64,000 nucleotides of DNA from an uncultured virus (IMG/VR IMGVR_UViG_2684623068_000003) (lineage: Duplodnaviria; Heunggongvirae; Uroviricota; Caudoviricetes): IMG/VR virus record IMGVR_UViG_2684623068_000003, one strand, 5' to 3'. A program made the position numbers and the translations under genes. Positions 7,499 to 64,000 of this stretch are shown here, piece after piece (the stretch's first letter is position 1; the number at the start of each line of letters is the position of its first letter). A model generated the notes under the pieces. It was not told the DNA's origin. It worked only from the letters and a program-made list of their open reading frames with translations, and did not search any database.

Positions 7499-7606
7499 AA
7501 AAGGAGGTGAGGAAAAATGTAAAACAGATGACTAAACGTCACAAAATCTATACATGTGAATGAGTTAGCGCTTATACAGTGTTGACGAGGTTATTTTTAT
7601 AACCGA

Positions 7607-7626
7607 TACTGTATATGCATACAGTA
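7607..7626 (+). promoter_or_regulatory. LexA (SOS) box
   Basis: Perfect palindrome TACTGTATATGCATACAGTA downstream of TTGACG, upstream of tum-like gene. Confidence 0.92.
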
Positions 7627-7642
7627 ATTGCAGAGGATACCA

Positions 7643-7846
7643 GTGGAACACATCAAACAAAATCAACTCACACTGTCACGGATACAATTTATTGCTGACG
7701 TCTCGCAGTCAGCTCAATGCAGCAATTCAGAATTTAAAATTGCTATGTCGCTCATATCTGAGTTAGTTGGCACCACGCTAGAGTCTGAACCTCATAGCTC
7801 AGGCTTGAATGCTGCCCCAGATAAAATGAACAAACTTGAGAGCTGA
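7643..7846 (+). CDS. tum: Tum-like SOS antirepressor
   Basis: GTG start with GAGGA SD; LSRIQFIADVS..CSNSEFKIAMSLISEL resembles 186 Tum N-domain; LexA box upstream; follows A. Confidence 0.7.
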   Translation: MEHIKQNQLTLSRIQFIADVSQSAQCSNSEFKIAMSLISELVGTTLESEPHSSGLNAAPDKMNKLES

Positions 7847-8039
7847 CCCCATGCATATACCACTACGCGAACCACCCCGTTTCAGCTCACATCAGTTAAA
7901 GTTGAACGCTGTTATTCTTCGCCTGCAGAATTTGATGATCAATGAGAATTTGACTCCTGACGAGCTCGTAGCGTGCGCTGAATTAGTTAAGGTCAGTAAT
8001 ATCAAAACAGAAGAACTAGCTTCAAATAGGGCTACCTAA
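7836..8039 (+). CDS. Small P2-like phage protein (orf91-like), start uncertain
   Basis: LNAVILRLQNLMINENLTPDELVAC; position before cos. Confidence 0.5.
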   Translation: MRADPMHIPLREPPRFSSHQLKLNAVILRLQNLMINENLTPDELVACAELVKVSNIKTEELASNRAT

Positions 8040-8357: not shown

Positions 8358-10838
8358 TTGACACTTTTAGAACAGGTTGACAGGATTCGTATCCAAGCTA
8401 ACTTAGAGCTTGATCCGGACAAAAAAGGCGCGTTAGGCCAGTACTTCACCTCTGCGCCAATCAGCCTTTTCATGGCTTCTTTATTTAGCGATATTAAAGG
8501 TGATATACGCCTTCTAGACCCAGGTTGTGGTCCGGGCTCCTTAACCGCTGCCTTCACTTCTGAGGCTCTACGGAGAGGTTCAGCAAAAAAAATTGATCTT
8601 TTTGCTTTTGACATCGAACCAACTCTAGCGCCTTACATACAAAAAACGATGAAATTATGCGCAGAATACTCTAATAATTCTGGAGTCACTTGCGCTTCTT
8701 CTTTCAAAGAATGTGACTATATTTTAACAACAGCCTGTAATGACAAAGTAAGCTCCACTTACACCCATTGCATCATAAATCCACCATATAAAAAAATCGC
8801 TACAACTAGCGAACATAGACATGTATTAAGAAAATCTGGTATCGAAGCAGTAAATCTTTATGCTGGTTTTGTAGCTTTAGCATTACAACAACTTGACCAT
8901 TTAGGCGAGTTAGTCGCTATTATCCCAAGATCTTTTTGTAACGGTCCTTATTACTTACCGTTTAGAAATGTGCTTTTCACTGAAACAGCCATTAAACACA
9001 TTCATATATTTGATAGCAGAACTCATGCATTTGCAGAAGACTCCGTACTCCAAGAAAATATTATAATTCATGTAATTAAAGGTGCGATTCAAAGCGATGT
9101 AACTATAACATCTAGCCCTATGTCGGATTTTTCATTTGATGACGAAACGCAAACCGTCACAGCAAGTGATATGACAATAAGAAAAGTTCCTTTTGAATCA
9201 CTAGTAAATAAAAATGATTCAGATAGATTTATACATATTGCTGCGAACAATAGAGACCAGTTCATAATTGATAGGCTATCGATCTTCACTACTAATCTTG
9301 AGCAATTAGGCATCAATGTTAGCACTGGTCCTGTTGTAGACTTCCGTCTAAAAAGCGATCTTCGCCAAGATATTGAGTTAGGAGCCGTGCCATTAATTTA
9401 TCCAATTCATTTGAACAATGGAGTTCAATGGCCAAAGGTTTCAAAAAAACCTAACGCCATATACGTATCTGAGACGTCAGAACCTTGGTTATGGAAGAAT
9501 AAAGACCATTTTGTCATCGTCAGAAGATTTAGCTCAAAAGAAGAAAAACGCCGTATTGTTGCAACGGTTTATGATGGTTCTTTACCTGGTGACTTGATTG
9601 GTTTTGAAAATAAACTCAACGTCTTTCATATCCATAAATCTGGAATGAGCGAACAACTGGCTTATGGTCTTGCAGCTTTTTTGAATTGTACATTACTCGA
9701 TAAATATTATCGTTTATTTGGCGGACATACGCAGGTTAACGCAACAGACCTACGAAACATGCACTACCCAAGTTACGAATCTTTATGCAGAATTGGCCTA
9801 CAACTTGCTGATGATAATCTTAGCCAAGAAAAAATTGATGATGTTATCAACAAGGAGGTAATACAATTGACCGGTGATATAGAACAAAACCCTCTTAGCG
9901 CCCAAGAGAAAATTGATCAGGCTATTGAGATACTCAAACAACTTGGAATGCCTAGAGCTCAGCTTAATGAACGCTCAGCGCTTACCTTTTTAGCATTACT
10001 AAATCTTCATCCTGAAGGCAATTGGCAAGAGTTAGAAAAACCACTGATTGGTGTTACTCCGATTATGGATTGGTGCAAAATTGTTTATGGAAAAGAATAT
10101 GCTCCTAACACTAGGGAAACATTCAGACGCCAGACACTTCACCAGTTTGTTGATGGCGGATTAGCTCTTTATAACCCAGACCAGCCAGATAGAGCTGTTA
10201 ACAGCCCCAAAGCATGCTATCAGATAGCACCAGAGCTCTATGATGTATTGAGTTCCTATGGAACATTACATTGGGACACTAATATCTCTCGCTGGCTTGA
10301 GCACCAAGAAACTTTGGTAGAAAGATATGCAATGGAGCGTGAAATGCATATGATCCCACTGACGCTAGACGATGGAACAGAAATTCATCTAAGTCCCGGT
10401 GATCATAGTCAACTAATACGCGATATCGTTATAGAGTTTGGCGCTAGATTTTTACCAGGCGCACAAGTTTTGTACCTTGGAGATACAGGGGCAAAGGAGG
10501 ATTTCTTTAGAAAATCTACACTTGAGTCTTTGGGGGTAACTGTAAATAGAAAAGGAAAGCTTCCTGATGTTGTACTCTACAGCCCCCAACGTGACTGGTT
10601 AGTTTTAATTGAATCCGTGACTAGCCATGGCCCTGTCGATAGTAAGCGACATGGGGAATTAGCAAAATTATTTGAAAATGCTCGCCCCGGGCTGGTATAT
10701 GTGTCCGCGTTTCCGGATAAAAAAACCATGGCGAAATTTCTATCTCAAATTAGCTGGGAAACAGAAATCTGGATTGCCGAGTCCCCAACACATATGATTC
10801 ATTTAAATGGGGATAGATTCTTAGGCCCCCATAATTGA
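8358..10838 (+). CDS. Fused N6-adenine methyltransferase + BsuBI/PstI-family restriction endonuclease
   Basis: 826 aa; GQYFT, LLDPGCGPG (motif I), NPPY (motif IV); C-terminal NERSALT, YAPNTRETFRRQTLHQF, GKLPDV..LIESVTSHGP. Confidence 0.88.
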   Translation: MTLLEQVDRIRIQANLELDPDKKGALGQYFTSAPISLFMASLFSDIKGDIRLLDPGCGPGSLTAAFTSEALRRGSAKKIDLFAFDIEPTLAPYIQKTMKLCAEYSNNSGVTCASSFKECDYILTTACNDKVSSTYTHCIINPPYKKIATTSEHRHVLRKSGIEAVNLYAGFVALALQQLDHLGELVAIIPRSFCNGPYYLPFRNVLFTETAIKHIHIFDSRTHAFAEDSVLQENIIIHVIKGAIQSDVTITSSPMSDFSFDDETQTVTASDMTIRKVPFESLVNKNDSDRFIHIAANNRDQFIIDRLSIFTTNLEQLGINVSTGPVVDFRLKSDLRQDIELGAVPLIYPIHLNNGVQWPKVSKKPNAIYVSETSEPWLWKNKDHFVIVRRFSSKEEKRRIVATVYDGSLPGDLIGFENKLNVFHIHKSGMSEQLAYGLAAFLNCTLLDKYYRLFGGHTQVNATDLRNMHYPSYESLCRIGLQLADDNLSQEKIDDVINKEVIQLTGDIEQNPLSAQEKIDQAIEILKQLGMPRAQLNERSALTFLALLNLHPEGNWQELEKPLIGVTPIMDWCKIVYGKEYAPNTRETFRRQTLHQFVDGGLALYNPDQPDRAVNSPKACYQIAPELYDVLSSYGTLHWDTNISRWLEHQETLVERYAMEREMHMIPLTLDDGTEIHLSPGDHSQLIRDIVIEFGARFLPGAQVLYLGDTGAKEDFFRKSTLESLGVTVNRKGKLPDVVLYSPQRDWLVLIESVTSHGPVDSKRHGELAKLFENARPGLVYVSAFPDKKTMAKFLSQISWETEIWIAESPTHMIHLNGDRFLGPHN

Positions 10839-19807: not shown

Positions 19808-20683
19808 TCAAAAATCTAAATCTACCGCATGATTGGACGGTTGATGCAAATTTTCTGCAGGATGCAAGGAATTCATGTAATCAATTATCTCTTGATTTTG
19901 TAACAAGGCAGAATAAAATGCACTCTGCCAATCTTTTCCAATGTCTGGCTGTGGAATCTCTGATAAACGTTGCTTTAATGCTGTACTCACGTCAAATTTT
20001 GCATTGGCCAATCTTCTCTTCCATTGCCGGAATTCCTTTTTGCTATAATGAATAATTCGTGATTTAATTTTTAATTTTTCCGCATGAATAATCACTCGCC
20101 TTTGGTCATCAGCCTGAGTTTCTATAATTCTTTTTAACTTTACCACTACAGATATATCATTGCTTTCAGTATTTAATGAGACATTCATTGAGAAACGAAA
20201 ATTCTCCAGAAAATTGAAATAAATAGGATGTATAAACATAGCTAAGTTATTTTCATTGCAATAATAATGCTCGCCTTTTACTGGAGCACAGCCTCTACAC
20301 TGAGGTACTAGATTATTAGGGAAAATAGAAAATTCAGGCCATTTTCCTTTAGGGATAAAATGATCTAAAGTGTCAGGAATCATTGGATTTCCACAGTAAG
20401 GGCAAAAGGAAAGTTCGTGTTCATTCCTTCTTTTAAGTAATAATTTGTTTAATTCCTTTGGTGCTTTTTCATAATATTCAATTAATAGATCAGAATGCTG
20501 TAGGAATGCACTCTCAGGTAGCGCATCATTACTAGAATCTATCAGACTATCATATGAACTATAATTATCAGATAGTTCTTCAGCTATAAGTTTAAGTTGT
20601 TGAACATTTTCTTTTTTACTTCCTCTTGCCGCGTCAAGCCATGCGCAAGGCTGATTTTCCATGAGTTCGCCTAAGTATTTCAT
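19808..20683 (-). CDS. HNH endonuclease (PtuB-like)
   Basis: CPYCG..TLDHFIPK..NNLVPQCRGC; translationally coupled to upstream ATPase. Confidence 0.85.
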   Translation of the reverse strand: MKYLGELMENQPCAWLDAARGSKKENVQQLKLIAEELSDNYSSYDSLIDSSNDALPESAFLQHSDLLIEYYEKAPKELNKLLLKRRNEHELSFCPYCGNPMIPDTLDHFIPKGKWPEFSIFPNNLVPQCRGCAPVKGEHYYCNENNLAMFIHPIYFNFLENFRFSMNVSLNTESNDISVVVKLKRIIETQADDQRRVIIHAEKLKIKSRIIHYSKKEFRQWKRRLANAKFDVSTALKQRLSEIPQPDIGKDWQSAFYSALLQNQEIIDYMNSLHPAENLHQPSNHAVDLDF

Positions 20684-22329
20684 TATTCATCCTCAAAAGA
20701 CATCTTGTCATCATCTGATTTTGAAAGTGCATAAGCTAATGCATCATTGCCGATATACCCCTTAATTTCAGAAATAGATGAGCTATCGCGAATGAAATAT
20801 TTATCAATCTCTTTTTGATAAGGCTTGCTTACATATTCATCATCGAATACTTCCGAGACTATTACATCAATTGACTCCCCATATGTTTCAACTGAGGATC
20901 TAAATACTTTGGTGTTCCCTTCAATTTTTCGTAATATAGTTACTGCATCTCTTTCAACTTCACGTGTCAATATTGATGAATGAGTGGCAATTATAGAAAA
21001 AGATTTTGTTTCATCCAAAATGTTCTTGAGCATGTTTATCAAACCAACTTCAAGCTCAGGGTGTAAGTAAAGTTCAGGTTCATCGAGGATTAATAAACTT
21101 TCTTCTTCAAGCTCAGATATTATTGCCGGAATCATATATGTATAAATTTTCTGACCTGAGCTTAGAGGAATTATGGCACCGTTTTTTTTAAAGATTAATC
21201 CTTTTTTTAAATTTATGTTTTCTTTGATGCTATTGATTCTAGTTTTTTCGTTTATGCAAATTTCATCACCACCATTATCCAGTATCGATATTGAATCAAA
21301 GGCTATTGAAATGGATAATGTTTCTTTTAGAAGTTGAAATCTCGTTTTATCATTCCACCAACCGTTTTCTTCATCATAACTTAGTATTTTAATAATTGAT
21401 TCAACGCTTTTTAAAACTGGGTATTCCGGGTCAAAGATTCCATCCTGATTTCTAAACCCTATATAAGAGTATTCATTTACATGTAAACGCTTTCTTTTCA
21501 AGCTTTTTTTGTTAGCTAAAGAGCCTTCCCGTGAATATTTTACCGTTAGCTTGTTGAATATTTCATTTTCTGTATAGAAGTCTTCAAATGGTGAGTGCGC
21601 AATAACTATTAACTTGTGAAAATAAGGTGGGTGCTCTTCACCGTCTGTAACACCTGTTATAACTTCACTTATTCTCTTCAATATATGGGTTTTGCCAACA
21701 CCATTCTTTCCGATTATAAGACAGATATTTGACTTCCCAACCTTTCTGTCCATGTTGAATTTAAAACTAATAGGGTCAAAACTCTCACCGAGGCTTTCAA
21801 TGTTCAGCTCAAATTTAGTTTTAGGATTATATCTCCCCAGTGCTATTTGATATCCTTTTTTCAAAATTGCAGCAGAAGAACTTCCTCTCATTAAACTACC
21901 TGAATATCCACCCCATTCAGAGTATTCGCTTTGATTCCTTAGAAAATATCCAGCATCACATAAAGATTCTAGCAGGGCATCTATTTTCTCTGGTTGAAAT
22001 AGTGAGTTTATCTTTTTATAATAGTCTATATCTTCACCAATCGAAACCAACTTATTTTCAGACAGTACGCCATTAATATTAATAATTTTTAGCTCAATTT
22101 CTTCACCATGTTCTTTAAAGTAAAGTGATGTGTTTTCATTTACTTTGGAAAGCATTTTTATATTGCCAATTTTTATCTTATCAGTATCTCTTACATAATA
22201 TACTTTGAACGTAATGATATATCCGAAGTCATCCCATGGAACTCCATAGTTTGTTCCTATATGATCCTGAAGCAAATGAATTCCAGGATATTTATCAATC
22301 ATTAATGTTTCCGAGTAGTAATAATCCAT
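20683..22329 (-). CDS. ABC/AAA_21-type ATPase (PtuA-like)
   Basis: Walker A GKNGVGKT, signature LSSGQK, Walker B LLILDEPE-LHP, switch IATHS; N-terminal WDDFGY. Confidence 0.88.
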   Translation of the reverse strand: MDYYYSETLMIDKYPGIHLLQDHIGTNYGVPWDDFGYIITFKVYYVRDTDKIKIGNIKMLSKVNENTSLYFKEHGEEIELKIININGVLSENKLVSIGEDIDYYKKINSLFQPEKIDALLESLCDAGYFLRNQSEYSEWGGYSGSLMRGSSSAAILKKGYQIALGRYNPKTKFELNIESLGESFDPISFKFNMDRKVGKSNICLIIGKNGVGKTHILKRISEVITGVTDGEEHPPYFHKLIVIAHSPFEDFYTENEIFNKLTVKYSREGSLANKKSLKRKRLHVNEYSYIGFRNQDGIFDPEYPVLKSVESIIKILSYDEENGWWNDKTRFQLLKETLSISIAFDSISILDNGGDEICINEKTRINSIKENINLKKGLIFKKNGAIIPLSSGQKIYTYMIPAIISELEEESLLILDEPELYLHPELEVGLINMLKNILDETKSFSIIATHSSILTREVERDAVTILRKIEGNTKVFRSSVETYGESIDVIVSEVFDDEYVSKPYQKEIDKYFIRDSSSISEIKGYIGNDALAYALSKSDDDKMSFEDE

Positions 22330-43024: not shown

Positions 43025-43064
43025 TTACAGACCGATGTTTTTACGGTGCTGCGCTAAGCGGTCA
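43025..43064 (-). pseudogene. FII: 3' remnant of tail tube FII
   Basis: Encodes DRLAQHRKNIGL-stop, matching the FII C-terminus of prophage 1. Confidence 0.88.
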
Positions 43065-43527
43065 CCCGACCATCAGCACTGCGGCCATGGAATTGATACG
43101 CGCCGACTGAACCGGCCACGCTTAATCCCTCAAAGGCTTGCTGAATACGCACCCGAAAATCGTTGTCGGACTCCAGCACGGCGGCCAGAGGGGGAATAGC
43201 GGTGGTATCGGCGGGCGTAATGACCAGACGTTCAACGTTATAGTTCGAGCCGAGGTTATCCAGATCGCCGCCGGTGGCATAGGCCAGCATGTTCGCGCGG
43301 GCGGCTTCATTCACCCGCTGACGCCACATCACCTCGCGATAAGCGTTTTCTTCGAGCAACTTGGTCAAGGGTTCGGATTCGAGCTGCAAGGTACGCGCCA
43401 CCGCTTCGCGCTGGCTCTCGTCACACAGAGACAACAGCGCCGCCTTGCGCTCGGCTAAAATACTTTCGTAGTCCAGCACCTCGACCACATCGGGCGCGGG
43501 AAGCTGACTCAGGTCAATGGTTGCCAT
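43054..43527 (-). pseudogene. J: Truncated gpJ (N-terminal ~155 aa)
   Basis: Matches gpJ up to HGRSADGRV, then joins the FII remnant. Confidence 0.92.
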
Positions 43528-43530
43528 GGA

Positions 43531-43878
43531 TTAACTCACAGGTACGTTAAGGGAGAAGGTGCCGCCGGTATCGGTCAGGGTGCCGGTGATATCGACCACC
43601 ATCTCGCCGTTAAACCGGTTATCGAACGTGATGGCCGTGAGCCTAACGCGGGGCTCCCACTTTAAAATCGCCATGTAACAGGCGGCCATAATTTGTAGGT
43701 TGAGCGCGGCGTTCTGCGGTTGGTCAATCAGGGCAGATAGGAGCGAACCATACTCACGACGCATGACCCGCGTGCCGACCGGCGTGATTAGAATATCGCG
43801 CACGCTTTGGCGAATATGGGCGAGGTCATCAAGCTGCTGGCCGTCGTCTCGGCTCATGCCTGAATAACGCGCCGTCAT
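43531..43878 (-). CDS. W: Baseplate protein gpW
   Basis: Near-identical to 23392-23739. Confidence 0.95.
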   Translation of the reverse strand: MTARYSGMSRDDGQQLDDLAHIRQSVRDILITPVGTRVMRREYGSLLSALIDQPQNAALNLQIMAACYMAILKWEPRVRLTAITFDNRFNGEMVVDITGTLTDTGGTFSLNVPVS

Positions 43879-44513
43879 TTCGTTCCCTCCGTCCATTCAC
43901 CGCCGCCTTTAACGCCGCCATGCCCATGTTTATCAACCTGTACGCCGTTCGAGGTGAATTTGCCGGTGTGTTCTATGGTGCCGCTCATCGTGCCGCCTTT
44001 TTGCACCTCGATAGAGCCGGTGGTTAGCTTGTTGGTGCAAATCACTTCGGGGGTATCGAGGGTGATTTTTTCGCTGGCGGTCACGGTGACGGACGGGCAA
44101 GTCACCACCACCGACGCCGAGGCGGTCACATCCGCGCTTTTTATACCGCTCACACTAAGCGCGCCGGTATCGGGCTCGTACTCGATGACCGCGCCGTCAG
44201 GAAACTCGACGCGCCAACCATCGGCAGACGCCGACGGGGCGGGAAAGTCATCACAATAAATGCCGGTCAGGACAAAGGCGGTATCAAGCTCGCCGCCGAC
44301 GGCCAGCAATAACACCTGCTCCCCCACCGACGGAGCCCACCAGTCACGCGAACGGCCAGCGCGACGCGCCAGCCAGTTAATCCAACCGGTTTGTATTTCG
44401 CCGGTTTGGACGCGGCACAGGGCTCCATCGGTATCGACTTCGGACACGACACCGGTGCGGATAAGGTTGCGCAGTAGACGCGAGATTTCGGATAGTTGGG
44501 ATTGTGTGCTCAT
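43875..44513 (-). CDS. V: Baseplate spike gpV
   Basis: Near-identical to 22757-23395. Confidence 0.95.
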   Translation of the reverse strand: MSTQSQLSEISRLLRNLIRTGVVSEVDTDGALCRVQTGEIQTGWINWLARRAGRSRDWWAPSVGEQVLLLAVGGELDTAFVLTGIYCDDFPAPSASADGWRVEFPDGAVIEYEPDTGALSVSGIKSADVTASASVVVTCPSVTVTASEKITLDTPEVICTNKLTTGSIEVQKGGTMSGTIEHTGKFTSNGVQVDKHGHGGVKGGGEWTEGTK

Positions 44514-44584
44514 GGGGAAAGGATGCCGCTAGGGAGGATTAGCGGCAATGTGATAGCGTAGGATGGGGGATCAGACAACAGGGA

Positions 44585-44612
44585 TAGACTGTTTAGTGCC
44601 AGAAGCGGACAT
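44585..44612 (-). repeat. 28-bp site, type B
   Basis: ATGTCCGCTTC-TGGCAC-TAAACAGTCTA. Confidence 0.85.
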
Positions 44613-44721
44613 ATCTTCAGATATTCTTATGGTGAAAAAACACAGCCATCAATTATTGTTCAATATCAATAATCAAAGCATGTTAGAGTTTCATTCGTAA
44701 GGAAAATCTCATCAGAAAAAT

Positions 44722-44749
44722 GCTTTATCACAGTGCCAAAAGTGGATAA
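44722..44749 (-). repeat. Degenerate type B site
   Basis: TTATCCACTTT-TGGCAC-TGTGATAAAGC; shares GTGCCAAAAGTGG with 46216-46228. Confidence 0.45.
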
Positions 44750-44830
44750 TCTATCACCTATTCATCTAGAGTTCGTTAGGTTTCGTTATCATTCGATTCA
44801 ATGTTCTTATACAAGGAATAGTTAGTCTCT

Positions 44831-46105
44831 ATGAGTGTCATAAAAGATTTTTTAGAACAATATAGCAAGCAGTATGATTACTATTCTGAGTTGGCAAAAA
44901 TTGGCTCAAACTTGCTCGAGCAGGAATTGGAGAAGAGAGGGATTAAAGCCATAGTTTCATTCAGAGCTAAGCGACCAGACCGCTTAGAACAAAAACTTAA
45001 TCAAAGAAATGAAAAGTCAGCATATGCAGATGTTGCTAATATATATGAAGATATCGTCGACCTGGCCGGTGTTCGAGTAGCTTTATATTTTCCAAAAGAT
45101 AGAGAAGTAGTTGATGAAACTATTAATTTTTTATTTAACGTCCGAAAAAAGAAAAACTTTCCAGAAGCATCTTATAAACCTAAGTTTGAAAAAAGATTTT
45201 CTGGTTACTGGGCATCTCATTATCGTGTCAATTTGAAAAACTCTAACCAAAATAAGAAGCGTTACGAAAGTGCATTATTTGAGATTCAAGTAGCATCGGT
45301 TCTTATGCATGCCTGGTCGGAAGTCGAACATGACCTTGTTTACAAACCTCTAGCAGGCGATTTGTCTGAAGAGGAACTTGCAATCCTGGATGAGATTAAT
45401 GGATTAGTGCTTACTGGCGAAATAGCTCTTGAAAGACTTCAAAAAGCCATAACAAAAAGAACTAAAGAAAAAGATAATATTTCAAATAGATATGAATTAA
45501 CGAGTTTTATAACCAACTCACTTAATAAGAATTATATAAACAAACTTAAATTAGGTGATACTAAAATTTTATTTAATTATCTCAAAGATAATTCTAGCAT
45601 AAGCGTCAGTGAACTTTCTGAATATTTGCGTAAAATTAATCAAAGTGAAAAAGAAACAATCACAGATCAATTGCTTCTTATGATTATTAATGATTCATAC
45701 AAGAGCGTTGGAAGTAATTTAAATCTTTCAAATTATTTCAAACATGCTCTTGGGGAACATAAGGATGTATCAGGGTTTGAGTCATTTGTTAAAACATGGA
45801 TTTTACTAGAAAAAGCAGTGTCTTTAATTCACAATCAAAACAATCGCCAGCACAAAAAATTCTTCACCGCAAAATTTGAGCCATTGGTTTCTGACGGAGT
45901 GCTGACGCAGGAAGAGTCAATTGAACTAAACTATTTTAAAAGAATTAGAAATAACTTACTTCATGGTATAGAAACACCTAACGATAAAGATCTAAACGAA
46001 ATGTTCGTTAGGTTGTTAGCATTAACTGAGAAGATTATCTCATCTATTAAAAATGATGATGATAAAGCTAAATTGCTCAAAGAAATAAAGACATTGAGTG
46101 ATTAA
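44831..46105 (+). CDS. RelA/SpoT (small alarmone synthetase-type) domain fused to a C-terminal HEPN-like domain
   Basis: RAK, DLAGVRV, GYWASHY, EIQVASVLMHAWSEVEHDLVYK; C-terminal FVKTWILLEK..RIRNNLLHG (RX4H). Confidence 0.85.
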   Translation: MSVIKDFLEQYSKQYDYYSELAKIGSNLLEQELEKRGIKAIVSFRAKRPDRLEQKLNQRNEKSAYADVANIYEDIVDLAGVRVALYFPKDREVVDETINFLFNVRKKKNFPEASYKPKFEKRFSGYWASHYRVNLKNSNQNKKRYESALFEIQVASVLMHAWSEVEHDLVYKPLAGDLSEEELAILDEINGLVLTGEIALERLQKAITKRTKEKDNISNRYELTSFITNSLNKNYINKLKLGDTKILFNYLKDNSSISVSELSEYLRKINQSEKETITDQLLLMIINDSYKSVGSNLNLSNYFKHALGEHKDVSGFESFVKTWILLEKAVSLIHNQNNRQHKKFFTAKFEPLVSDGVLTQEESIELNYFKRIRNNLLHGIETPNDKDLNEMFVRLLALTEKIISSIKNDDDKAKLLKEIKTLSD

Positions 46106-46178
46106 AATATGAGATAAAAATCATGGTCATAGGCTAATTATTGTTTTGTATTCAGAGCCTGAATCTAAGCAGAATGAT

Positions 46179-46232
46179 ATGTCCGCTCCTCGCTCAAAGC
46201 AGCCCACTCCGCTTCGTGCCAAAAGTGGCAGT
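46179..46232. repeat. Back-to-back type A (46179-46206, +) and type B (46205-46232, -) sites
   Basis: ATGTCCGCTCC-TCGCTC-AAAGCAGCCCA / ACTGCCACTTT-TGGCAC-GAAGCGGAGTG. Confidence 0.85.
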
Positions 46233-46329
46233 AGCTAATAGTCGATTGCGTGGAACAACTGAAACCAAATCAAATAGCCGCTATTGACACATGATGCAAA
46301 TACCCCGCAAGAGCGGGGTTTGAACGAAA

Positions 46330-46713
46330 CTACAATTTTTTAATCAGATTCTCAATATTGGCTGGTTCAAAGTAATGCGGATTAACTTCACCATTTATGA
46401 GGAAACCATCTTTAAGTAGGTCTTCAAGTTCACTCTCTACCTCTTTGTCGAAGATACCTGGATATATTCTCTTGTATGCCTGAAAGGTACCTTTCATCTT
46501 CCTGCAAGCATTTTCCGCGATTTCGAATGAGATCTCGTTTCCTGCATTAAAGGCCGGTATGAAGATCTCAAGAATATCGTTCTTTAGCTTCTGCTTAAGT
46601 TTCTTCTTTTCAACGATATTTGAGTAACAGATACCTAAAAAGAAGGTGAAGATACCAGGAACCCAATTGTTAACGAAAACTTCAAGAATCCCTTTAATAG
46701 ACAAAGTGTCCAC
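46330..46713 (-). CDS. Hypothetical protein with N-terminal TM helix
   Basis: 127 aa; GTG start with AGGAG SD; hairpin ACCCCGC-AAGA-GCGGGGT downstream (46302-46319). Confidence 0.7.
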   Translation of the reverse strand: MDTLSIKGILEVFVNNWVPGIFTFFLGICYSNIVEKKKLKQKLKNDILEIFIPAFNAGNEISFEIAENACRKMKGTFQAYKRIYPGIFDKEVESELEDLLKDGFLINGEVNPHYFEPANIENLIKKL

Positions 46714-48230: not shown

Positions 48231-49145
48231 CTAGTGCTTTTCAAGTATTTCATACGAGAACTCCACATGTGGATGAACATACTCTGCTGAATTAATCTCA
48301 CGTTGCACATTATCAATTGTTACAACGCAGAGAACCCCATTGGTGTTTAGTAGGACAGCCTTTTGCCCTACAGCCGGAGTAACAGAACGACCTGGAGTTA
48401 AGAAAGAATTGACAGTCAAGGGATCAAAATCTGCAACTGTAATCAACCCGACGGCTTTGAGTCCACCATCTATATAGAGGTAAACACTACTGTCTGAGTG
48501 TGCACTAAATGCTATTTTAAACTGATATTCACTGTTACCAATCGTATAGTGGGCATTGTCTTTGAAGCGAAAAATCTCGCGTCCCTTGAGTGCTGGATTC
48601 GCATAATGCGAAGGAGCACGAAGAATATCAATATGTTCAAGCCTTGCAATACGTTGACGATAAACCGATAATGGAGTCGTATGCTTTTTATCTGTTGGCA
48701 GTCCTTCAATCCAACGCCAAATAGCATCGATCTGTATAGAGCCAGGAAATTCATTTCTATCAGGATTAGAATTAAAGTCAAAGCCCTTAGGATTATGCCC
48801 CTCAAGCCAATTAGGTAGTTTTCGCTCAGGATTTCGAACAAAGATAACCGACAACCATGTCGAGTGCTTTGTCATAAAAGCTTCACTTATCCATTTGTTT
48901 TCGATACCAACCCCTGAATTCGGTTTGTTATTAGCTCGTTGGACATAGTTATCGTCGACAATCAACAGTACATGATCGGTTTCGATAACCTCTCGCATGA
49001 AACCAGATAAGCTTGAACCATATTTTACAGATTCATCGATTTTAACCGTATAGCCAATAAGGTCGAGATGGCTTGCAATTAGTCGAACCCATTCCCTATG
49101 GACATCTGAAGTCCAAGCGTATGAAATAAATAAATCGGTTTTCAT
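48231..49145 (-). CDS. TIR (TIR_2/SEFIR-like) domain protein with beta-rich C-terminal domain
   Basis: LFISYAW..HREWV..ID..G.SL..FM..VLLIVDDNY..GVGIE (putative catalytic Glu). Confidence 0.88.
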   Translation of the reverse strand: MKTDLFISYAWTSDVHREWVRLIASHLDLIGYTVKIDESVKYGSSLSGFMREVIETDHVLLIVDDNYVQRANNKPNSGVGIENKWISEAFMTKHSTWLSVIFVRNPERKLPNWLEGHNPKGFDFNSNPDRNEFPGSIQIDAIWRWIEGLPTDKKHTTPLSVYRQRIARLEHIDILRAPSHYANPALKGREIFRFKDNAHYTIGNSEYQFKIAFSAHSDSSVYLYIDGGLKAVGLITVADFDPLTVNSFLTPGRSVTPAVGQKAVLLNTNGVLCVVTIDNVQREINSAEYVHPHVEFSYEILEKH

Positions 49146-49317: not shown

Positions 49318-49349
49318 TCATGCCTGCTTATAAAATAGGCTTAGCGTAG

Positions 49350-49644
49350 GATAGTTAGGGGCACGACGACTACGATTTATCCGCGTATCCACACCGCCTT
49401 CATCGGCCAGTTCGCGGTAACCATAGAACGAATCACGTGAAATTCCCATGATTTTACAGGCTTTTGATACATTGCTGAGTTCTTCAGCCAAATTGAGTAA
49501 ACCGGCTTTGTGTTTGATAATGCGATTGGTAGTATGAAGCATGAGAGTTACCTTGTGTTTTGTGTAAGGATTCGACACTCATATCAAAACCGGTAATCCT
49601 CAACCTTTCAAGGCCATGTGTCAGATCAAGTCGCGACTGATACA
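49350..49644 (-). mobile_element. IS481-family remnant (left end plus truncated transposase)
   Basis: End TGTATCAGTCGCGACTTGATCTGACA (49619-49644); MLHTTNRIIKHKAGLLNLAEELSNVSKACKIMGISRDSFY. Confidence 0.85.
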
Positions 49645-50502: not shown

Positions 50503-50922
50503 TTATAAAAACAATTCTGGTTTCACACCAAAACGAGCCGACAGTGCCTTAATGTGAGTAATGGTCAAAGAGCGCTGGCCAGACAGAATCTGGCTAACCA
50601 GTGATTTAGAGCCGATCTCCTCTTTGAGATCAGAGTAAGACAGCTTGTGCTGGTCAATCAGGGTACGCAGCAGTGCAACGCCGACCGGCATTTCAGCGTT
50701 AGCTTTGTTGAATTCAGCGAAACGAGGGCTATTATCTTCATAGTCGGCAATCTTACTCACCAAAAAGTCAATAAGCGGGTTCTCGTCGTCGTTCTCGATC
50801 AAGTAGTCCACCAGCTCCAACGCTTCGCGGTAATCGCTCTCGGACGAACTGCCCCCTAGGAAGGGGACAGCAGCTATGAGTTGTTTGGTTGCTTCAATGG
50901 CTTTTGCGGTGTCGGTAATCAT
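50503..50922 (-). CDS. higA: HigA antitoxin (HTH)
   Basis: LLRTLIDQHKLSYSDLKEEIGSKSLVSQILSGQRSLT..LSARF. Confidence 0.92.
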   Translation of the reverse strand: MITDTAKAIEATKQLIAAVPFLGGSSSESDYREALELVDYLIENDDENPLIDFLVSKIADYEDNSPRFAEFNKANAEMPVGVALLRTLIDQHKLSYSDLKEEIGSKSLVSQILSGQRSLTITHIKALSARFGVKPELFL

Positions 50923-51230
50923 TCTTTGTTCTCCCTGTAATAGCGGGTCAACTTGTCGTAATCAGCGTGGGTTGCGATGTGCTTCACATAGAAGCGCTTA
51001 TTCATGAAATTGATATAGACAATAACCCTCAAGTTGTTGCCTCCTACATTTAAAACCCACCACTTGTTCCGGTACTTGAAATTATCCATGCTCGGTATCA
51101 GAGTTGGCATCTCAGTTGGAGAAGAGAAATCCGTCTCGCGCACTAAGCGGTACAGTGCCCGAATGGCTAACGAATCGTTGGGATATCGCTTTGCCGCTTC
51201 CTCAAAAGGCTCTTTTGAAATTACGTGCAT
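50919..51230 (-). CDS. higB: HigB toxin (RelE-like mRNase)
   Basis: MHVISKEPF..WWVLNVGGNNLR..FYVKHIATHADYD; toxin-first order. Confidence 0.92.
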   Translation of the reverse strand: MHVISKEPFEEAAKRYPNDSLAIRALYRLVRETDFSSPTEMPTLIPSMDNFKYRNKWWVLNVGGNNLRVIVYINFMNKRFYVKHIATHADYDKLTRYYRENKE

Positions 51231-51492: not shown

Positions 51493-52404
51493 TCACCCGC
51501 TAAGAAATGCGGTGACGACATCCTCAACGATATGCTTATCCGATGCACTAAACCCTAATAGCGGGCGTGCATCATACTTCACCTCACGGCTAAAGCGGTT
51601 CGGCTTATCGCTTAAGCCCTCTTGATGTATCCGCGCCATACGCTGAACACGCCCGACAAACTCGACCACGGCGGCATCGCTTGAGCCTTGCGCTTTCATA
51701 AAGCGATTGGTGCGCAGCTTCGCAAACATCTGGCGCTTTACGCGGCCTCGTTTGCCGCTGGTTGGTTGTGGCTTTCGGCTGGCGTAGGGTGTGCCGTCGG
51801 GCGCTTTCTGTTGCTTAATGTGCTGTTGCTGACTGGTGCGCAAGCGCTTCGCCACTTTCACCGCAATTTTGCGGCGCTGCACCGGCGTTAGGTTGCCAAT
51901 CAGCCCCGCGAGCCTGTCCTCAAACTGTTTGAGCTCACTCATATCCCACTGACTCACTAGCTCGCCGTTGATATAGAGCTCCATGGGGCGCTCAACCGGC
52001 TGCGGGATTTGTGGCTCGTTAAGGTGCTTCACATGAAGCGCCCTATCCACCTGTTTGACGATAACGCGCTCGGTGAGGCGCAGACTAAAACTGACATCGA
52101 TACTTTCGTGATTATTCAGGTCAGCAAAGTAAGTGAAGCCGTTCCGTTTGCCCTCATCAGTGGTCATGATATCCGGCTGGTTTTCGCGGAGCCATGCGTT
52201 AATCGGCACAATGAGCAAATCCAGATCGCCAGAATAATCGGTTATGGTCACATTGAGCGTGTACAGATTTTCATGCGATAGCGTCGCGGCTAGCGTGGTC
52301 GCAATCGTCCCGTTATCTACAAACAGGCGCAGCATATCGGGATTTTTACGCAGCACCGGCGCGGCTTTCTCAAGCGCTTCGCGCAGACTTTTGGGCTTTA
52401 ACAT
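51493..52404 (-). CDS. In-frame gpR-gpS fusion
   Basis: 303 aa = R (..ELVSQWD) + S (MSELKQF..); TGGGATATGAGT versus TGGGATGAATGA in prophage 1. Confidence 0.88.
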   Translation of the reverse strand: MLKPKSLREALEKAAPVLRKNPDMLRLFVDNGTIATTLAATLSHENLYTLNVTITDYSGDLDLLIVPINAWLRENQPDIMTTDEGKRNGFTYFADLNNHESIDVSFSLRLTERVIVKQVDRALHVKHLNEPQIPQPVERPMELYINGELVSQWDMSELKQFEDRLAGLIGNLTPVQRRKIAVKVAKRLRTSQQQHIKQQKAPDGTPYASRKPQPTSGKRGRVKRQMFAKLRTNRFMKAQGSSDAAVVEFVGRVQRMARIHQEGLSDKPNRFSREVKYDARPLLGFSASDKHIVEDVVTAFLSG

Positions 52405-60730: not shown

Positions 60731-62464
60731 TTATGGGAATATTGGAATTACAGAAAAATTCACAATACGCGTAGTTGTATTAATCCCCTGATATACAGTG
60801 GTTTGTGTAATCTGGTTGGATACCTCATCATATTTCATTGTATCAGTGAGACATGCTAAAGCCACCTCTGGATTTTTTTTGTACAAAATTGCATATCTTT
60901 TATTCATCCATGCCAGCACACAACGATGTAACGCATTTGTTCCTTCTTCAATATTTTTTGGATGTAGTTTTAACCCAAGCACATTCAGAATAAAACTTAA
61001 AAACCTTGCCCCCTTATAATTTGGAAACCTTTCCATTTCAATTACTTCCTCATATAATAGCCGACGTAATTTATGTTTTATAATTTCACTAGGTTTACCA
61101 TGTATACTAGAAGTTTGGAAAAAACCGTCTAAGACAGTATTATGCTGAATTGACCAACAGTCCCAGATAGGACTTTTTACAGCTGATGCATAATATATTA
61201 CATCTAGCATATTCTTTGCTACAGCATCATATATTGAGTGATATCTATATCTCCCCACCCCCTTTACCTTATTTCTCAAGACAAAATTAGAAGGTTTTTT
61301 AACATTACTTATCTCACACGAAACTTCATTTAAAAAATTGACACAAACATCCAATCGTCGAACTGGTTCAGAATCCCAACTACCAAGCATGCCATTTACT
61401 TTATAAATCCCACTACTTTCATCAGTAATATAACCCAAAGCTCTATTTATCATTGTAGGGCTCTGACAAATAACGCCTTGCAAATAAGATTTAATTGTAA
61501 GAAGAAAAGCGTTGCAGAAAACATCAAATTGTTTAACAGACCAATGCTTTCGAATTTCGCTGTCAATATCGAAAACTATAGATAAATTTTCAACAAGAAC
61601 ATAATTTTTGAACAAAGCAGTACTTAAAGGTTTTACATATCCTATAAATCCAGAATCATAATAATTAGACTCATGATACAAAAATGAGTCTGTATTTAAT
61701 ATTGCTTCTGTGAAAAAATTTTTTGCAAAAATATCAACATTAATTCGATATTTTTTGCAATTATCCATTTCAGTAAAGAGTAGTATGGAAAGTGGAAGTG
61801 CCGACTCAGCCACAGCTTTGCAAAAACGCTTATCAGATATAAGCACAAGGATTTCATTTGCAACTAACTCAACTAAAGGCGTTTTCTTTACACTTTCCCC
61901 TCCATCTTTCTCAGAACCATTTGTTGCATACTTAACAAGGTTTGGGATAGACCTTGTAATCTCATCGGCTATAACAATCAAATCATTTTTATACCCACGA
62001 ACAATATAGCCATACAATACATTCCCATACTTTTTAGCCGTCCAGCGTGAAAAAACAGATGGCCTAATAAAAGCAAAAAAAACCCATACAAGGAATATGA
62101 GAAAAAACACGCCAGCTAAAAGCGCTTGCCAACCAGCTTGACTAATTAAGCTACCTTTCAAAACTGGCCAGCCTTGCGCTCGCCATAGGTCAGTTAATAA
62201 TGATAATACTCCGACTAGCGTAACCGTGTAGAAAGTAATTTTTTCAAGAGCTAGAGGTGCAGTTTTAATTCGAAATCGATATCGAGTATCTGCTATTGTC
62301 CATGCTAGTATCATTAATGCCAAGCCAGCAAGAAACTCTGAAAAACCGAAGATTTTTGGACCATTCTGGTTGAGGTTGACAAAGCATAAAAGCTCAGTGC
62401 AATTTTTAGTCATGATAATAAGCTTATTATAAGAAATGTATACCATAGTATCTAATTTTAACAT
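60731..62464 (-). CDS. AT-rich hypothetical protein with ~3 N-terminal TM helices (A-cos accessory locus)
   Basis: 577-aa ORF, start uncertain; hydrophobic segments FLAGLALMILAW, FYTVTLVGVLSLL, ALLAGVFFLIFLVWVFFAF. Confidence 0.8.
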   Translation of the reverse strand: MLKLDTMVYISYNKLIIMTKNCTELLCFVNLNQNGPKIFGFSEFLAGLALMILAWTIADTRYRFRIKTAPLALEKITFYTVTLVGVLSLLTDLWRAQGWPVLKGSLISQAGWQALLAGVFFLIFLVWVFFAFIRPSVFSRWTAKKYGNVLYGYIVRGYKNDLIVIADEITRSIPNLVKYATNGSEKDGGESVKKTPLVELVANEILVLISDKRFCKAVAESALPLSILLFTEMDNCKKYRINVDIFAKNFFTEAILNTDSFLYHESNYYDSGFIGYVKPLSTALFKNYVLVENLSIVFDIDSEIRKHWSVKQFDVFCNAFLLTIKSYLQGVICQSPTMINRALGYITDESSGIYKVNGMLGSWDSEPVRRLDVCVNFLNEVSCEISNVKKPSNFVLRNKVKGVGRYRYHSIYDAVAKNMLDVIYYASAVKSPIWDCWSIQHNTVLDGFFQTSSIHGKPSEIIKHKLRRLLYEEVIEMERFPNYKGARFLSFILNVLGLKLHPKNIEEGTNALHRCVLAWMNKRYAILYKKNPEVALACLTDTMKYDEVSNQITQTTVYQGINTTTRIVNFSVIPIFP

Positions 62465-62615: not shown

Positions 62616-64000
62616 TTATGGATACCATTCATCTAAGCTCGGATATGAGAATACTATTCCATCATAAACTAGTGATGCCCCCCGAGCTAACGCTTCAAGC
62701 TCCCAGCGCTGCGCAGTAATACCTTCTTTAGCTAAAGATCGGCTTATTTTCCACGTTCGCTCCCGTTCGCAGTGGGTCAGTCGCGCCGACGGCGCTAAAT
62801 CACGCGGTTTATTCGGTTCTGCACTACGTTGATGCCGATTCACTCTTCCCAACTGTGCCTTTGCTGAGTCTCTAATCACCTTGGCAGCGTCGGGGTCGTT
62901 CCAGCTAACATCGCCGCTTTCTATAAGTTTCATCACCGCTGAGGCGTATTCAGACGGTGTAACCGGTGGTGTTATATCAACACTATGATGCCCTTCCCCA
63001 CAGTTATTGACAGGACTCCGAGGCGCGCCAGAGGCGCTTTTTAAAGTCAAAGGATCAAGGTCAACGGCCTTGCTGACGATGCGCCATTGAGTCTCGCGAG
63101 TTTTGTGGATGTGGCTTTCACCAAGATGCGGCGCAAAGATGCCGACAACCTTCGGGACTTCTTCGTCGTATTCGTTGAGCTCGTCGGCTATCTCGCGAGC
63201 GACACGAACGGTCTGTAAATCTCTTGCTACATTTGCACCGCCCTGCGCCTCGATATAGGCCGCAAAGTCACCACCGTCGGCAGCTGCTCGCACAGCCTCG
63301 ACGCTTTCATCAAAACTATCGGCGATACTGATACCCCGTAGGCTTTGGCGGCGACACTCACGGTATGCGCCCATTGTAGGAATACCAATCGGGTGAAATT
63401 GTGGAATACGCCAGATAGACGCCCATGCTGTAACGGCGGCGGCGGTCTGAGATAAGGGCTTGCCGGTGTCATGGTCTATTTCGCCGTCAAGCGCATAACC
63501 ATCGATATTTTTAGAAACGTATTTAGCGATGTAGGCTACCGCGCCGCCTTTGTTCAGGTGCTTACACTCAAAGCGCTGCTTACGAGCTCCGCGTTCGTCA
63601 CCGTCTTCTTTTAACGCGTAACGTTGCATAATCTCGACAATAGCCGCGCGTTGTTTGCGGTCGCAAAACAGCACCATATGCCAGTGAGGTGTCCCGTCGT
63701 GGTGAGGCTCAACCACACGAATCCCATAGACGTTTAGATCGCGGTCTTTGAATGCGGTGCGCATCTTGCTCCAGATTCTGACTAGATAACGCTGGCCATC
63801 TTTCGGGGAAAAGGCTTCTCCATCCCACTTGTGGTTAAGCTGGCATTGTTTGTCACGCTTGTTTTTTACCTTGCGGGTCGGGTGATATTTCGAGGGCGTG
63901 GTGATGGTGACAAACATACCGATGTGATTTTTTTCAACGGCATATTTTCCGATACCGTAAATAGTGCTCATCAGCTCCATGCGGCGAATCTCAGGGTTAG
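62616..64000 (-). CDS. A: Replication endonuclease gpA (3' part; runs off the window)
   Basis: EPHHDGTPHWH, YIAKYVSKNIDG. Confidence 0.95.
   Translation of the reverse strand, partial: NPEIRRMELMSTIYGIGKYAVEKNHIGMFVTITTPSKYHPTRKVKNKRDKQCQLNHKWDGEAFSPKDGQRYLVRIWSKMRTAFKDRDLNVYGIRVVEPHHDGTPHWHMVLFCDRKQRAAIVEIMQRYALKEDGDERGARKQRFECKHLNKGGAVAYIAKYVSKNIDGYALDGEIDHDTGKPLSQTAAAVTAWASIWRIPQFHPIGIPTMGAYRECRRQSLRGISIADSFDESVEAVRAAADGGDFAAYIEAQGGANVARDLQTVRVAREIADELNEYDEEVPKVVGIFAPHLGESHIHKTRETQWRIVSKAVDLDPLTLKSASGAPRSPVNNCGEGHHSVDITPPVTPSEYASAVMKLIESGDVSWNDPDAAKVIRDSAKAQLGRVNRHQRSAEPNKPRDLAPSARLTHCERERTWKISRSLAKEGITAQRWELEALARGASLVYDGIVFSYPSLDEWYP

Follow-up and report, generated by a model that had tools for sequence, protein, structure and literature searches.

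A predicted fusion of a RelA/SpoT synthetase with a HEPN domain, carried by a mobile single-gene cassette in a P2-like prophage

Introduction

Why should a prophage carry, among its tail genes, a lone gene for a small alarmone-synthetase-type protein with a long C-terminal extension? The question is raised by an open reading frame (ORF) in a 64,000-nucleotide stretch of DNA from an uncultured virus (IMG/VR record IMGVR_UViG_2684623068_000003), the whole of which is called the window in this work. The ORF encodes 424 amino acids at 44831..46105 on the plus strand. An earlier note, made from the letters of the DNA, had read its product as an alarmone synthetase fused to a HEPN-like RNase domain and had supposed a single-gene, self-regulated abortive-infection protein; the coordinates were confirmed exactly. 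In databases, the family is annotated solely as "GTP pyrophosphokinase".

It was found that the protein, on the evidence of its sequence, joins a small-alarmone-synthetase-type domain to a HEPN domain in one chain via a family-specific helical domain. Full-text literature searching found no published description of a synthetase-HEPN fusion. Neither "SpoT" nor "ppGpp" occurs in the main text of the HEPN census (PMC3710099), and the word "HEPN" is absent from the available text of the toxSAS paper PMC7229694. The sole PADLOC match of the protein is PDC-S33 (E 9.1e-9), and the match covers only residues 22-163, aligned with positions 48-175 of the 349 of the profile, which is the RelA/SpoT core and not the full architecture. 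Judged by sequence, the protein is a combination, undescribed and widespread, of two known conflict modules. Here I describe its domains, its conservation and the settings of its gene, and weigh what it may do.

Domain architecture

Translation, Pfam, alignment and structural modelling divide the protein (P0001) into a RelA/SpoT synthetase, a helical middle domain and a HEPN domain. All three are encoded on the plus strand. Residues 1-214 (44831..45472) form the small-alarmone-synthetase-type RelA/SpoT domain, whose Pfam core spans residues 45-172 and which was recognised by Pfam, PDB sequence and Foldseek matches. Residues 215-310 (45473..45760) form the middle domain, and residues 311-424 (45761..46102) are assigned to the HEPN domain by Pfam on relatives, a PDB profile and fold matches. 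About 250 residues outside the synthetase are assigned in this way to the middle and HEPN domains. The start Met is common to relatives, and homologues across many phyla are 419-430 residues long. The predicted local distance difference test score (pLDDT) of the full-length model is 80.1.

The middle domain belongs to no known Pfam family. It is a bundle of short helices in both the full-length and the C-terminal models and is also recovered by a family profile; the helical linker that the earlier note had placed between the synthetase and the C-terminus is thus real in the models. The middle-domain profile matched 133 of the 135 full-length cluster representatives, against 121 for the HEPN profile, some of these representatives being in the alignment from which both profiles were made.

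The synthetase domain

Is the N-terminal domain a genuine small alarmone synthetase? Pfam RelA_SpoT (PF04607) was matched on residues 45-172 with an E-value of 1.5e-13 and 51.5 bits against a cut-off of 27, and the match recurred in all 34 relatives scanned. No HD, TGS or ACT family was found in the 424-residue protein at Pfam E<=1. In the 34-sequence alignment, the invariant residues are R45-x-K47, K55, R59, D74/D77-x-x-G80-x-R82, G125-Y126...H130, E151-I-Q153 and E164-x-E166-H167. Among them, R45-x-K47, D77-x-x-G80-x-R82, G125-Y126...H130 and E151-I-Q153...E166-H167 align on the motifs of RelQ and RelP (2be3, 5f2v, 3l9d and 6fgk). This is what the earlier note had claimed for the N-terminus, namely RelA/SpoT motifs unaccompanied by HD, TGS or ACT domains, and the claim is borne out.

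Two catalytic-type positions can be placed on the DNA. The codon of D77, the conserved Asp of the RelQ/RelP DxxGxR motif, lies at 45059..45061 (plus strand); by alignment, D is found in 332/332 full-length relatives, a set of database proteins and locus-encoded copies that are not independent of each other. D77 is a putative metal ligand. The codon of E151 lies at 45281..45283 (plus strand) in the EIQ motif, which reads EIQVAS here and EIQIRT in RelQ/RelP, and E is aligned there in 331/332 relatives. R45, D77, Y126, H130 and Q153 are invariant in the 332 relatives, and the four-residue core of R45, K47, D77 and E151 is intact in 330 of them.

Among solved proteins, the RelQ/RelP small alarmone synthetases are the closest by sequence, and phmmer gave 2be3 at E 1.7e-6. 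When a family profile was compared with the PDB, residues 41-181 matched 2be3 at E 2.1e-8, 3l9d at 5.6e-7, and 6fgk and 5f2v at about 7e-6, the overall range being 2e-8 to 5e-5. Foldseek with the full-length model returned RelP/RelQ at E 6e-5 to 2e-4 and the tRNA pyrophosphokinase CapRel (7ztb_A) at 3e-4, and its matches were confined to the N-terminal synthetase. The protein is not a RelQ orthologue, as the RelQ equivalog model gave it 34 bits against a cut-off of 320. By its synthetase (SYNTH) domain, its motifs and its lack of HD, TGS and ACT domains, the N-terminal domain is predicted to be of the small alarmone synthetase class.

The HEPN domain

The C-terminal domain is more elusive. For the window protein alone, the sole match within the HEPN clan of Pfam was DUF4145 at a sub-threshold E of 0.051, and therefore the HEPN assignment rests on family-level evidence. 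When the 34 relatives were scanned singly with Pfam at E<=0.1, HepT-like was matched in 21/34 (best E 3.7e-6), DUF4145 in 18/34 and HEPN_Swt1 in 12/34. A precomputed PF01934 label was found on 5 among the 120 homologues listed. DUF4145 and DUF86 are both given as HEPN families in the available part of PMC3710099. A profile of the last 140 residues, built from 42 loci, ranked HepT toxins first among PDB sequences (7ae9, E 0.02; 6m6u, 0.094; 5yep, 0.11), and the lRNelvHG of the family aligned with the lRNrlvHeY or lRNiavHdY of the HepT chains.

Which residues define the domain? The sequence R373-N-N-L-L-H378-G379 (45947..45967, plus strand) is an Rx4H catalytic-type motif that aligns to the RNxxxH of HepT (7ae9, 6m6u and 5yep); R is kept in 307/332, N in 290/332 and H in 302/332 relatives. 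The HEPN hallmark, Rx4-6H with a polar residue after R, is present as R373-N-N-L-L-H378. Upstream of it, W323-I-L-L-E327 (45797..45811, plus strand) corresponds to the W...E of the long HEPN helix, with W in 305/332 and E in 294/332 relatives. In alignments of 63 and of 42 diverse relatives, where overall identity of the C-terminal half drops to 15-25%, conservation at >=90% in this half is limited to F319, W323, E327, R373, N374, H378 and G379. The earlier note had singled out a C-terminal W..LE...RNNLLHG pattern, and W323..L326-E327 and the RNNLLHG stretch are indeed present and among the few well-conserved residues of this half.

The fold was also assessed. A model of residues 215-424, made from a 63-row alignment, reached a pLDDT of 91.9 and a predicted template-modelling score (pTM) of 0.87. 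It was compared with 48,161 chains by VIA-align, and the matches lay over residues 97-196 of the model (311-410 of the protein). The top match was 1wwp (Z 9.4), followed by 2hsb, a "HEPN domain containing protein" (8.7), the C-terminal domain of Swt1 (4pqz, 8.0), an AMPylated HEPN toxin (8xdj, 7.9), HepT (5yep, 7.7), AbiA (8oz7, 7.7) and a HEPN toxin (7ae2, 7.5). Further rows were 1jog, 1ylm and Csm6 (6tug), and these top rows span Z 9.4-7.2. Most of the top structural matches of the C-terminal model are HEPN proteins. The fold-search rows span residues 77-210 of this model, and the middle domain is thus barely covered. ESM Atlas returned no usable match for residues 205-424.

The C-terminal domain is accordingly taken as a predicted HEPN domain with a catalytic-type site of the kind found in HEPN RNases, and an RNase role is predicted for it. 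The earlier note had made its proposal depend on the C-terminus adopting a HEPN fold; since the best fold matches of the C-terminus are HEPN proteins, that part of it probably holds, as far as prediction allows.

Conservation and distribution of the family

Are the two active sites maintained together? Among the 332 relatives, 293 keep both the synthetase core and the R and H of the HEPN motif, 37 keep the core only, and 2 keep the HEPN R/H only; the HEPN R/H pair is thus retained in 295/332. The two halves evolve at different rates, the N-terminal half being at least 50% identical to the window protein where the C-terminal half is 14-25% identical. Purifying selection is visible on both active sites.

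Some relatives retain the synthetase and the middle domain but have other C-termini. In the 135 full-length representatives, RNxxxH was found in 99 and another C-terminus in 14. Pfam on 40 variants revealed that tetratricopeptide (TPR) repeats replace the HEPN domain in P0204 and that HTH_8, a Fis-type helix-turn-helix domain, is added after the HEPN domain in P0260. In most of the representatives with other ends, the C-termini belong to no known family. The synthetase and the middle domain are the constant core of the family, and the HEPN domain is its usual, replaceable and fast-evolving C-terminal module, in which the active-site residues are kept.

The family is large. Of 7,998 proteins scored in a word-indexed search, 2,685 reached E<=1e-3. 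When the 50%-identity representatives were searched exhaustively, 4,257 reached E<=1e-3, 1,327 reached <=1e-10 and 433 reached <=1e-30. In a one-genome-per-species collection, 471 of 496 pattern matches encode a relative, and the best 80 of these 471 genomic sites were used for locus comparisons. These 80 loci come from Gamma-, Beta-, Alpha- and Deltaproteobacteria, Bacteroidota, Bacillota, Actinomycetota, Acidobacteriota, a cyanobacterium and a spirochaete. In IMG/VR, 15 loci encode relatives, two of which are near-identical.

The mobile cassette

How did the gene come to lie in this prophage? It occupies a low-GC single-gene cassette of about 1.6 kb (44596..46202), which was delimited by its recurrence with unrelated flanks, by a break in RNA contigs and by its guanine-plus-cytosine (GC) content. 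The GC content is 0.319 at 45-46 kb, as against 0.55-0.58 in the phage flanks. Copies of the cassette were found at 97.0% identity in the IMG/VR contigs L082 and L083, at 96.6-96.8% in the chromosome of Escherichia coli T16R (L001) and at 99.2% in a Mangrovibacter contig (L002), and the flanks are unrelated among the window, L082/L083, L001 and L002. L082 represents a different P2-like phage, and its copy occupies another tail-gene slot, between a 175-residue ORF after the fibre gene and the sheath gene. The cassette is present in only 3 of 5,426 complete E. coli genomes, two being assemblies of strain T16R. In this strain (L001, 7382-10603), a truncated pinE, a gene of the GIY-YIG type and the remnant of a capsid gene lie next to the cassette, which directly adjoins an IS26-bounded resistance region (TEM-1, RmtB1 and FosA3).

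The boundaries of homology coincide with a 27-nt imperfect inverted repeat found by a repeat search. The left arm (44589..44615) marks the left boundary and the right arm (46176..46202) the right one; the arms are 81% complementary, and their inner 12 nt are perfect. It may be a site of recombination; alternatively, its arms may be terminal repeats of a mobile module that lacks a transposase. A semi-conserved AGTCCGCTnT was seen just outside the left cassette edge in 3/5 contexts; it has GTCCGCT in common with the right arm.

Inside 44596-46202, no other ORF of at least 50 codons was found, just ORFs of 25-48 codons. Rfam on 44300-46500 gave only sub-threshold matches at chance level, so that no candidate RNA antitoxin was found. 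A promoter and terminator scan was uninformative, with promoter-like sites fewer than in shuffles and no plus-strand terminator. RNA-library contigs cover the cassette: those of two transcriptome studies, both on one organism, are about 96% identical to it, and those of one metatranscriptome about 99%. RNA contigs of another organism span within 44583-46202 of the window and break off exactly at 46202. The earlier note's claim of a single-gene unit agrees with these findings, in that one long ORF recurs at 96.6-99% identity in unrelated contexts. The gene is predicted from this to act without a partner.

The prophage setting

The window has two P2-like prophage segments in opposite orientation, 11048-34000 and 38104-60274, and in the second, a low-GC island of 7 kb has the cassette as its first gene. 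On the near side of the island is a baseplate assembly/spike gene (43875..44513, minus strand; phrog_9992, E 1.6e-32), whose product is presumably P2 gpV-like. On the far side is a fused tail terminator and tail completion gene (51493..52404, minus strand; phrog_65, E 8.5e-60 on residues 1-157; phrog_26, E 1.8e-46 on residues 152-302), whose product I take to be P2 R+S-like.

The cassette is not the only cargo. The island also has a bSEFIR/TIR protein gene (48231..49145, minus strand; PADLOC E 3.8e-43; Pfam TIR_2) and a HigB/HigA-like pair matching PD-Lambda-2 A and B in PADLOC (50503..51230, minus strand); no third PD-Lambda-2 gene was recognised in the island. An IS3-like helix-turn-helix fragment (49318..49578, minus strand) suggests a past insertion. 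Several further ORFs of the island match only phage proteins of unknown function. In the first prophage, the equivalent tail-completion/baseplate junction is occupied by a two-gene candidate defence system, the Septu-like PDC-M01A and PDC-M01B (19808..22329, minus strand). By PADLOC, the former has 548 residues (E 4e-248, also PtuA-like) and the latter, which is HNH-like, has 291 (E 8e-128). A defence-gene hotspot inside the P2 tail genes is described in the available part of PMC13586616. A prophage cargo slot among defence genes favours a putative defence role for the protein.

Other observations concern the rest of the window. The second prophage lacks sheath, tube and fibre genes, and its baseplate wedge gene is reduced to a fragment of 157 residues (43054-43527). 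Because of the missing tail genes, the wedge fragment and the fused ORF at 51493-52404, this prophage looks rearranged or defective. A low-GC stretch upstream of the first prophage has a gene at 8358-10838 (plus strand) for an 826-residue methyltransferase fused with a BsuBI/PstI-type endonuclease (PADLOC MTase_II, E 0; REase_II, 9e-132). A stretch of 33% GC between portal-side genes and a homologue of replication gene A (62616-63980) has an ORF of 577 codons (60731-62464, minus strand), an unexplained candidate for cargo to which neither Pfam nor PADLOC gave a match. According to the available part of PMC13586616, the stretch between the portal-side genes and replication gene A is the main P2 defence hotspot.

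Neighbouring genes in other genomes

Does the gene have a conserved partner elsewhere? Across the 80 loci, no conserved neighbour was found. The largest family within three genes was present at 10/80 loci; it is an ABC-F-type ATPase restricted to Lachnospiraceae synteny. A toxSAS-type adjacent antitoxin gene in an operon was found neither in the cassette nor at the 80 loci. The earlier note had remarked that the cassette has no antitoxin gene. Since the cassette has a single long ORF, with no other of at least 50 codons, and since no neighbour family recurs beyond 10/80 loci, this remark stands.

Two candidate partners were considered and rejected. A small upstream ORF was considered as an antitoxin; it is found only in close Lachnospiraceae and Sphingobacterium relatives (4 loci in each cluster), and Pfam assigns it to no family. 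A downstream gene of 190-260 codons in Bacteroidota and Gammaproteobacteria was considered as a partner; the ten that were scanned belong to unrelated families (HD_3, methyltransferase, Ymh, TIR, CIA30, thioredoxin, a cNMP-binding protein and three without a family). At one locus only, in Photobacterium lipolyticum (L006), an HD_3/YfbR-like phosphohydrolase gene (7301-7948, plus strand; E 1.1e-47) lies 19 nt downstream of the homologue and may encode a nucleotide hydrolase partner. The L006 homologue has K in place of R in its HEPN motif.

Defence genes do occur nearby. With PADLOC at E<=1e-5, 29 of 131 immediate neighbours of at least 90 residues gave a match, and 12 of the 131 were judged to be specific defence proteins. 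These are a NucC-like protein, SIR2, PD-Lambda-3_B, ThsB, a reverse transcriptase (RT) fragment, HamB, HNH, PDC-M54A, PDC-M43B, PDC-S54, a PbeA-like protein and PDC-M03B; HamB was matched at E 1e-243, ThsB at 2.5e-111 and SIR2 at 1e-60. Ten of the 12 are at loci L003-L035, a clade closer to the window protein, and about 10 of these 33 loci have a specific defence neighbour.

Proposed function and alternatives

What, then, may the protein do? I tentatively propose, with confidence just short of even, that it is an autoinhibited single-chain, single-gene abortive-infection (anti-phage) protein in which both enzymes act. In an uninfected cell, the protein would be held off by intramolecular packing, with the HEPN domain kept monomeric. 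A phage cue would release it. The synthetase would then move pyrophosphate from ATP to an acceptor, either a nucleotide to make an alarmone or the 3′ end of an RNA or tRNA as in CapRel-type enzymes, while the HEPN domains would pair and cut RNA. Together, the two reactions would halt translation and phage growth.

Several findings weigh against this proposal. The Arg residues of RelQ/RelP in GYR and QIR are replaced by W127 and A155, so that the acceptor substrate cannot be inferred from sequence. The PDB profile matches of the C-terminus, at E 0.02-0.11, are individually weak, and the VIA-align Z-scores of 9.4 or less fall below about 13, a range that is possibly generic for helical bundles. 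The Foldseek comparison of each domain, which the earlier note had suggested, came out well for the N-terminal half, with matches to RelP, RelQ and CapRel, but not for the C-terminal model, which had nothing at E<=1e-3 and weak Csm6 and AbiF rows only. The RNA contigs give a weak hint of transcription, as DNA carry-over is possible. In deposited phages, 0 of 50,697 records have a relative at >=80% coverage, with 4 partial N-terminal matches, and just 1 of 72,556 plasmids has a full-length relative. The Bacillota branch (about 40% identity) shows conserved chromosomal synteny that is not defence-island-like. The figure of 12 defence neighbours in 131 is a raw, uncontrolled count, and 17 of the 29 PADLOC matches are generic (5 ABC-F, 8 HhH-GPD, 2 methyltransferases, 1 weak E1-E2 tail match and 1 DEDDh exonuclease).

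A possible, if unlikely, alternative is that the protein works as CapRel does. The RelA/SpoT domain would be the sole toxin, by pyrophosphorylation of tRNA 3′ ends or overproduction of (p)ppApp/(p)ppGpp, and the middle and HEPN-like regions would be a covalent antitoxin and phage sensor with no RNase activity, occluding the active site until bound by a phage protein. The mechanism of CapRel is described in the available part of PMC13000451. The protein here is like CapRel of the SJ46 type in being a single prophage-borne chain with an N-terminal synthetase-type domain, a fast-evolving C-terminal region and no separate antitoxin gene. The N-terminal model matches 7ztb_A, as described above. The synthetase core is nearly constant (330/332) and intact in 37/37 relatives without the HEPN R/H. 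The fast divergence of the C-terminal half (14-25% identity, against at least 50%) is what a sensor would show, and its exchange or extension in the 14 of 135 representatives with other C-termini, in P0204 and in P0260, where the HEPN domain is kept, is also compatible with such a role. However, R373, N374, H378 and G379 are the best-conserved C-terminal residues, which is hard to reconcile with a domain that purely blocks or senses. In CapRel, the C-terminus is a zinc-finger-like antitoxin and sensor, whereas the C-terminal fold here is HEPN-like with a catalytic-type motif. Moreover, CapRel gave no match at E<=1 in PDB sequence searches, the fold match to 7ztb_A being N-terminal only.

Is the protein immune at all? 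It might be a small alarmone synthetase for stress signalling, in which RNA binding or sensing by the HEPN-type domain tunes alarmone synthesis, with the prophage copy being a passenger or a lysogen-fitness gene; I regard this as distinctly unlikely. Its closest solved sequence relatives are the housekeeping RelQ and RelP, with which it has the RxK, DxxGxR, GY..H and EIQ...EH motifs in common. In contrast, RelQ/RelP have GYR and EIQIRT where GYW and EIQVAS are found here, and the 424-residue protein has 210 extra C-terminal residues and a mobile, patchy setting. Lachnospiraceae copies lie in conserved synteny with genes for an ABC-F ATPase and an HhH-GPD glycosylase. The family has probably been counted already as the "FunRel" synthetase subfamily in the census of RelA/SpoT homologues (RSH) by Jimmy et al. 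(2020; PMC7229694). In the part of the census that is available, one FunRel[S] is listed in both of the two cross-checked genomes that have a homologue, Eisenbergiella tayi DSM 26961 (L060) and Paenibacillus assamensis DSM 18201 (L047), and both genomes also list RelP/RelQ. The assignment is an inference because the census rows for the two genomes carry no accessions. In the available text of that study, the validated toxins are of other subfamilies, and no C-terminal HEPN domain or function is described for FunRel. Against a purely housekeeping role are the patchy distribution over many phyla, the mobility of a cassette with 96.6-99% identical copies in unrelated contexts, the prophage cargo slots beside defence genes and the specific defence neighbours at about 10 of the 33 loci of the closer clade (L003-L035).

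It was also considered whether the HEPN domain is the toxin and the transferase a built-in antitoxin that silences it by ATP-dependent covalent modification, as in the type VII toxin-antitoxin system HepT/MntA or the fused FhepTA. I find this improbable. In the available part of PMC13000451, HepT/MntA and FhepTA pair a transferase of the polymerase-beta superfamily with an RNxxxH HEPN domain, and FhepTA shows that fused MNT-HEPN proteins regulated by modification exist. The HEPN profile aligns best to HepT toxins, and the fold matches include the AMPylated 8xdj and the HepT/MntA complexes 5yep and 7ae2. A defective synthetase core with an intact HEPN motif is very rare (2/332). On the other hand, FhepTA has an MNT transferase and a linker of 3-5 residues, while the transferase here is of the RelA/SpoT type and is followed by a helical domain of 96 residues; no MNT-type family was found in the 424-residue protein at Pfam E<=1. 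RelA/SpoT-type enzymes are expected to transfer pyrophosphate to a ribose 3′-OH and not AMP to a protein, which counts against such silencing. The Tyr near the RNase motif that is AMPylated by MntA (PMC13000451, in its available part) lies two residues after the His in HepT (RN..vHeY or RN..vHdY), whereas the family here reads RN.L.HGIE.P, with G379-I380 at those positions. Furthermore, none of the 37 relatives without the HEPN R/H has lost the synthetase core, which argues that the synthetase has a role of its own. For these reasons (the type of enzyme, the missing Tyr and the intact core), a modifying antitoxin is a weakened idea, and the earlier note's analogy with HEPN domains controlled by nucleotidyltransferases loses its force in the HepT/MntA sense.

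The two enzymes might instead be wired in series. On sensing phage, the RelA/SpoT domain might make a 3′-pyrophosphorylated nucleotide, and this alarmone, acting via the middle domain, might activate the HEPN RNase in its own molecule and in adjacent ones, making a one-chain second-messenger immune circuit; this is a long shot. If true, OAS-RNase L and Cas10-Csm6 would have a counterpart in a single bacterial chain. In a variant of this circuit, the 2′-OH chemistry of the HEPN domain would cut the 3′-pyrophosphate of the alarmone, a built-in off-switch replacing the HD hydrolase of long RelA/SpoT proteins.

Finally, it is hardly probable at all that the C-terminal domain is non-catalytic and only binds substrate, like the helical domain of such polymerase-beta-type transferases as kanamycin nucleotidyltransferase, GlnE or DrrA: the fold matches do include DrrA/SidM (3l0i at Z 6.5, 6yx5 at Z 6.1) and the adenylylation domain of GlnE (3k7d at Z 6.2), and Pfam places HEPN in the nucleotidyltransferase substrate-binding clan (PMC3710099, in its available part), but DrrA and GlnE score lower than true HEPN proteins, and those families lack the Rx4-6H motif (Table 1 of PMC3710099) that is conserved here.

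Implications

Alarmone-synthetase toxins are well-established weapons in toxin-antitoxin and anti-phage systems, and so are HEPN RNases. Here, the two types of domain occur together in one protein, with both active sites conserved. The cassette is compact (1.6 kb), comes from an enterobacterial prophage and acts, if at all, alone, and thus should be easy to test. If the two activities are coupled, the family would reveal a new control of HEPN RNases, a new immune use of alarmone chemistry, or a dual attack on tRNA.

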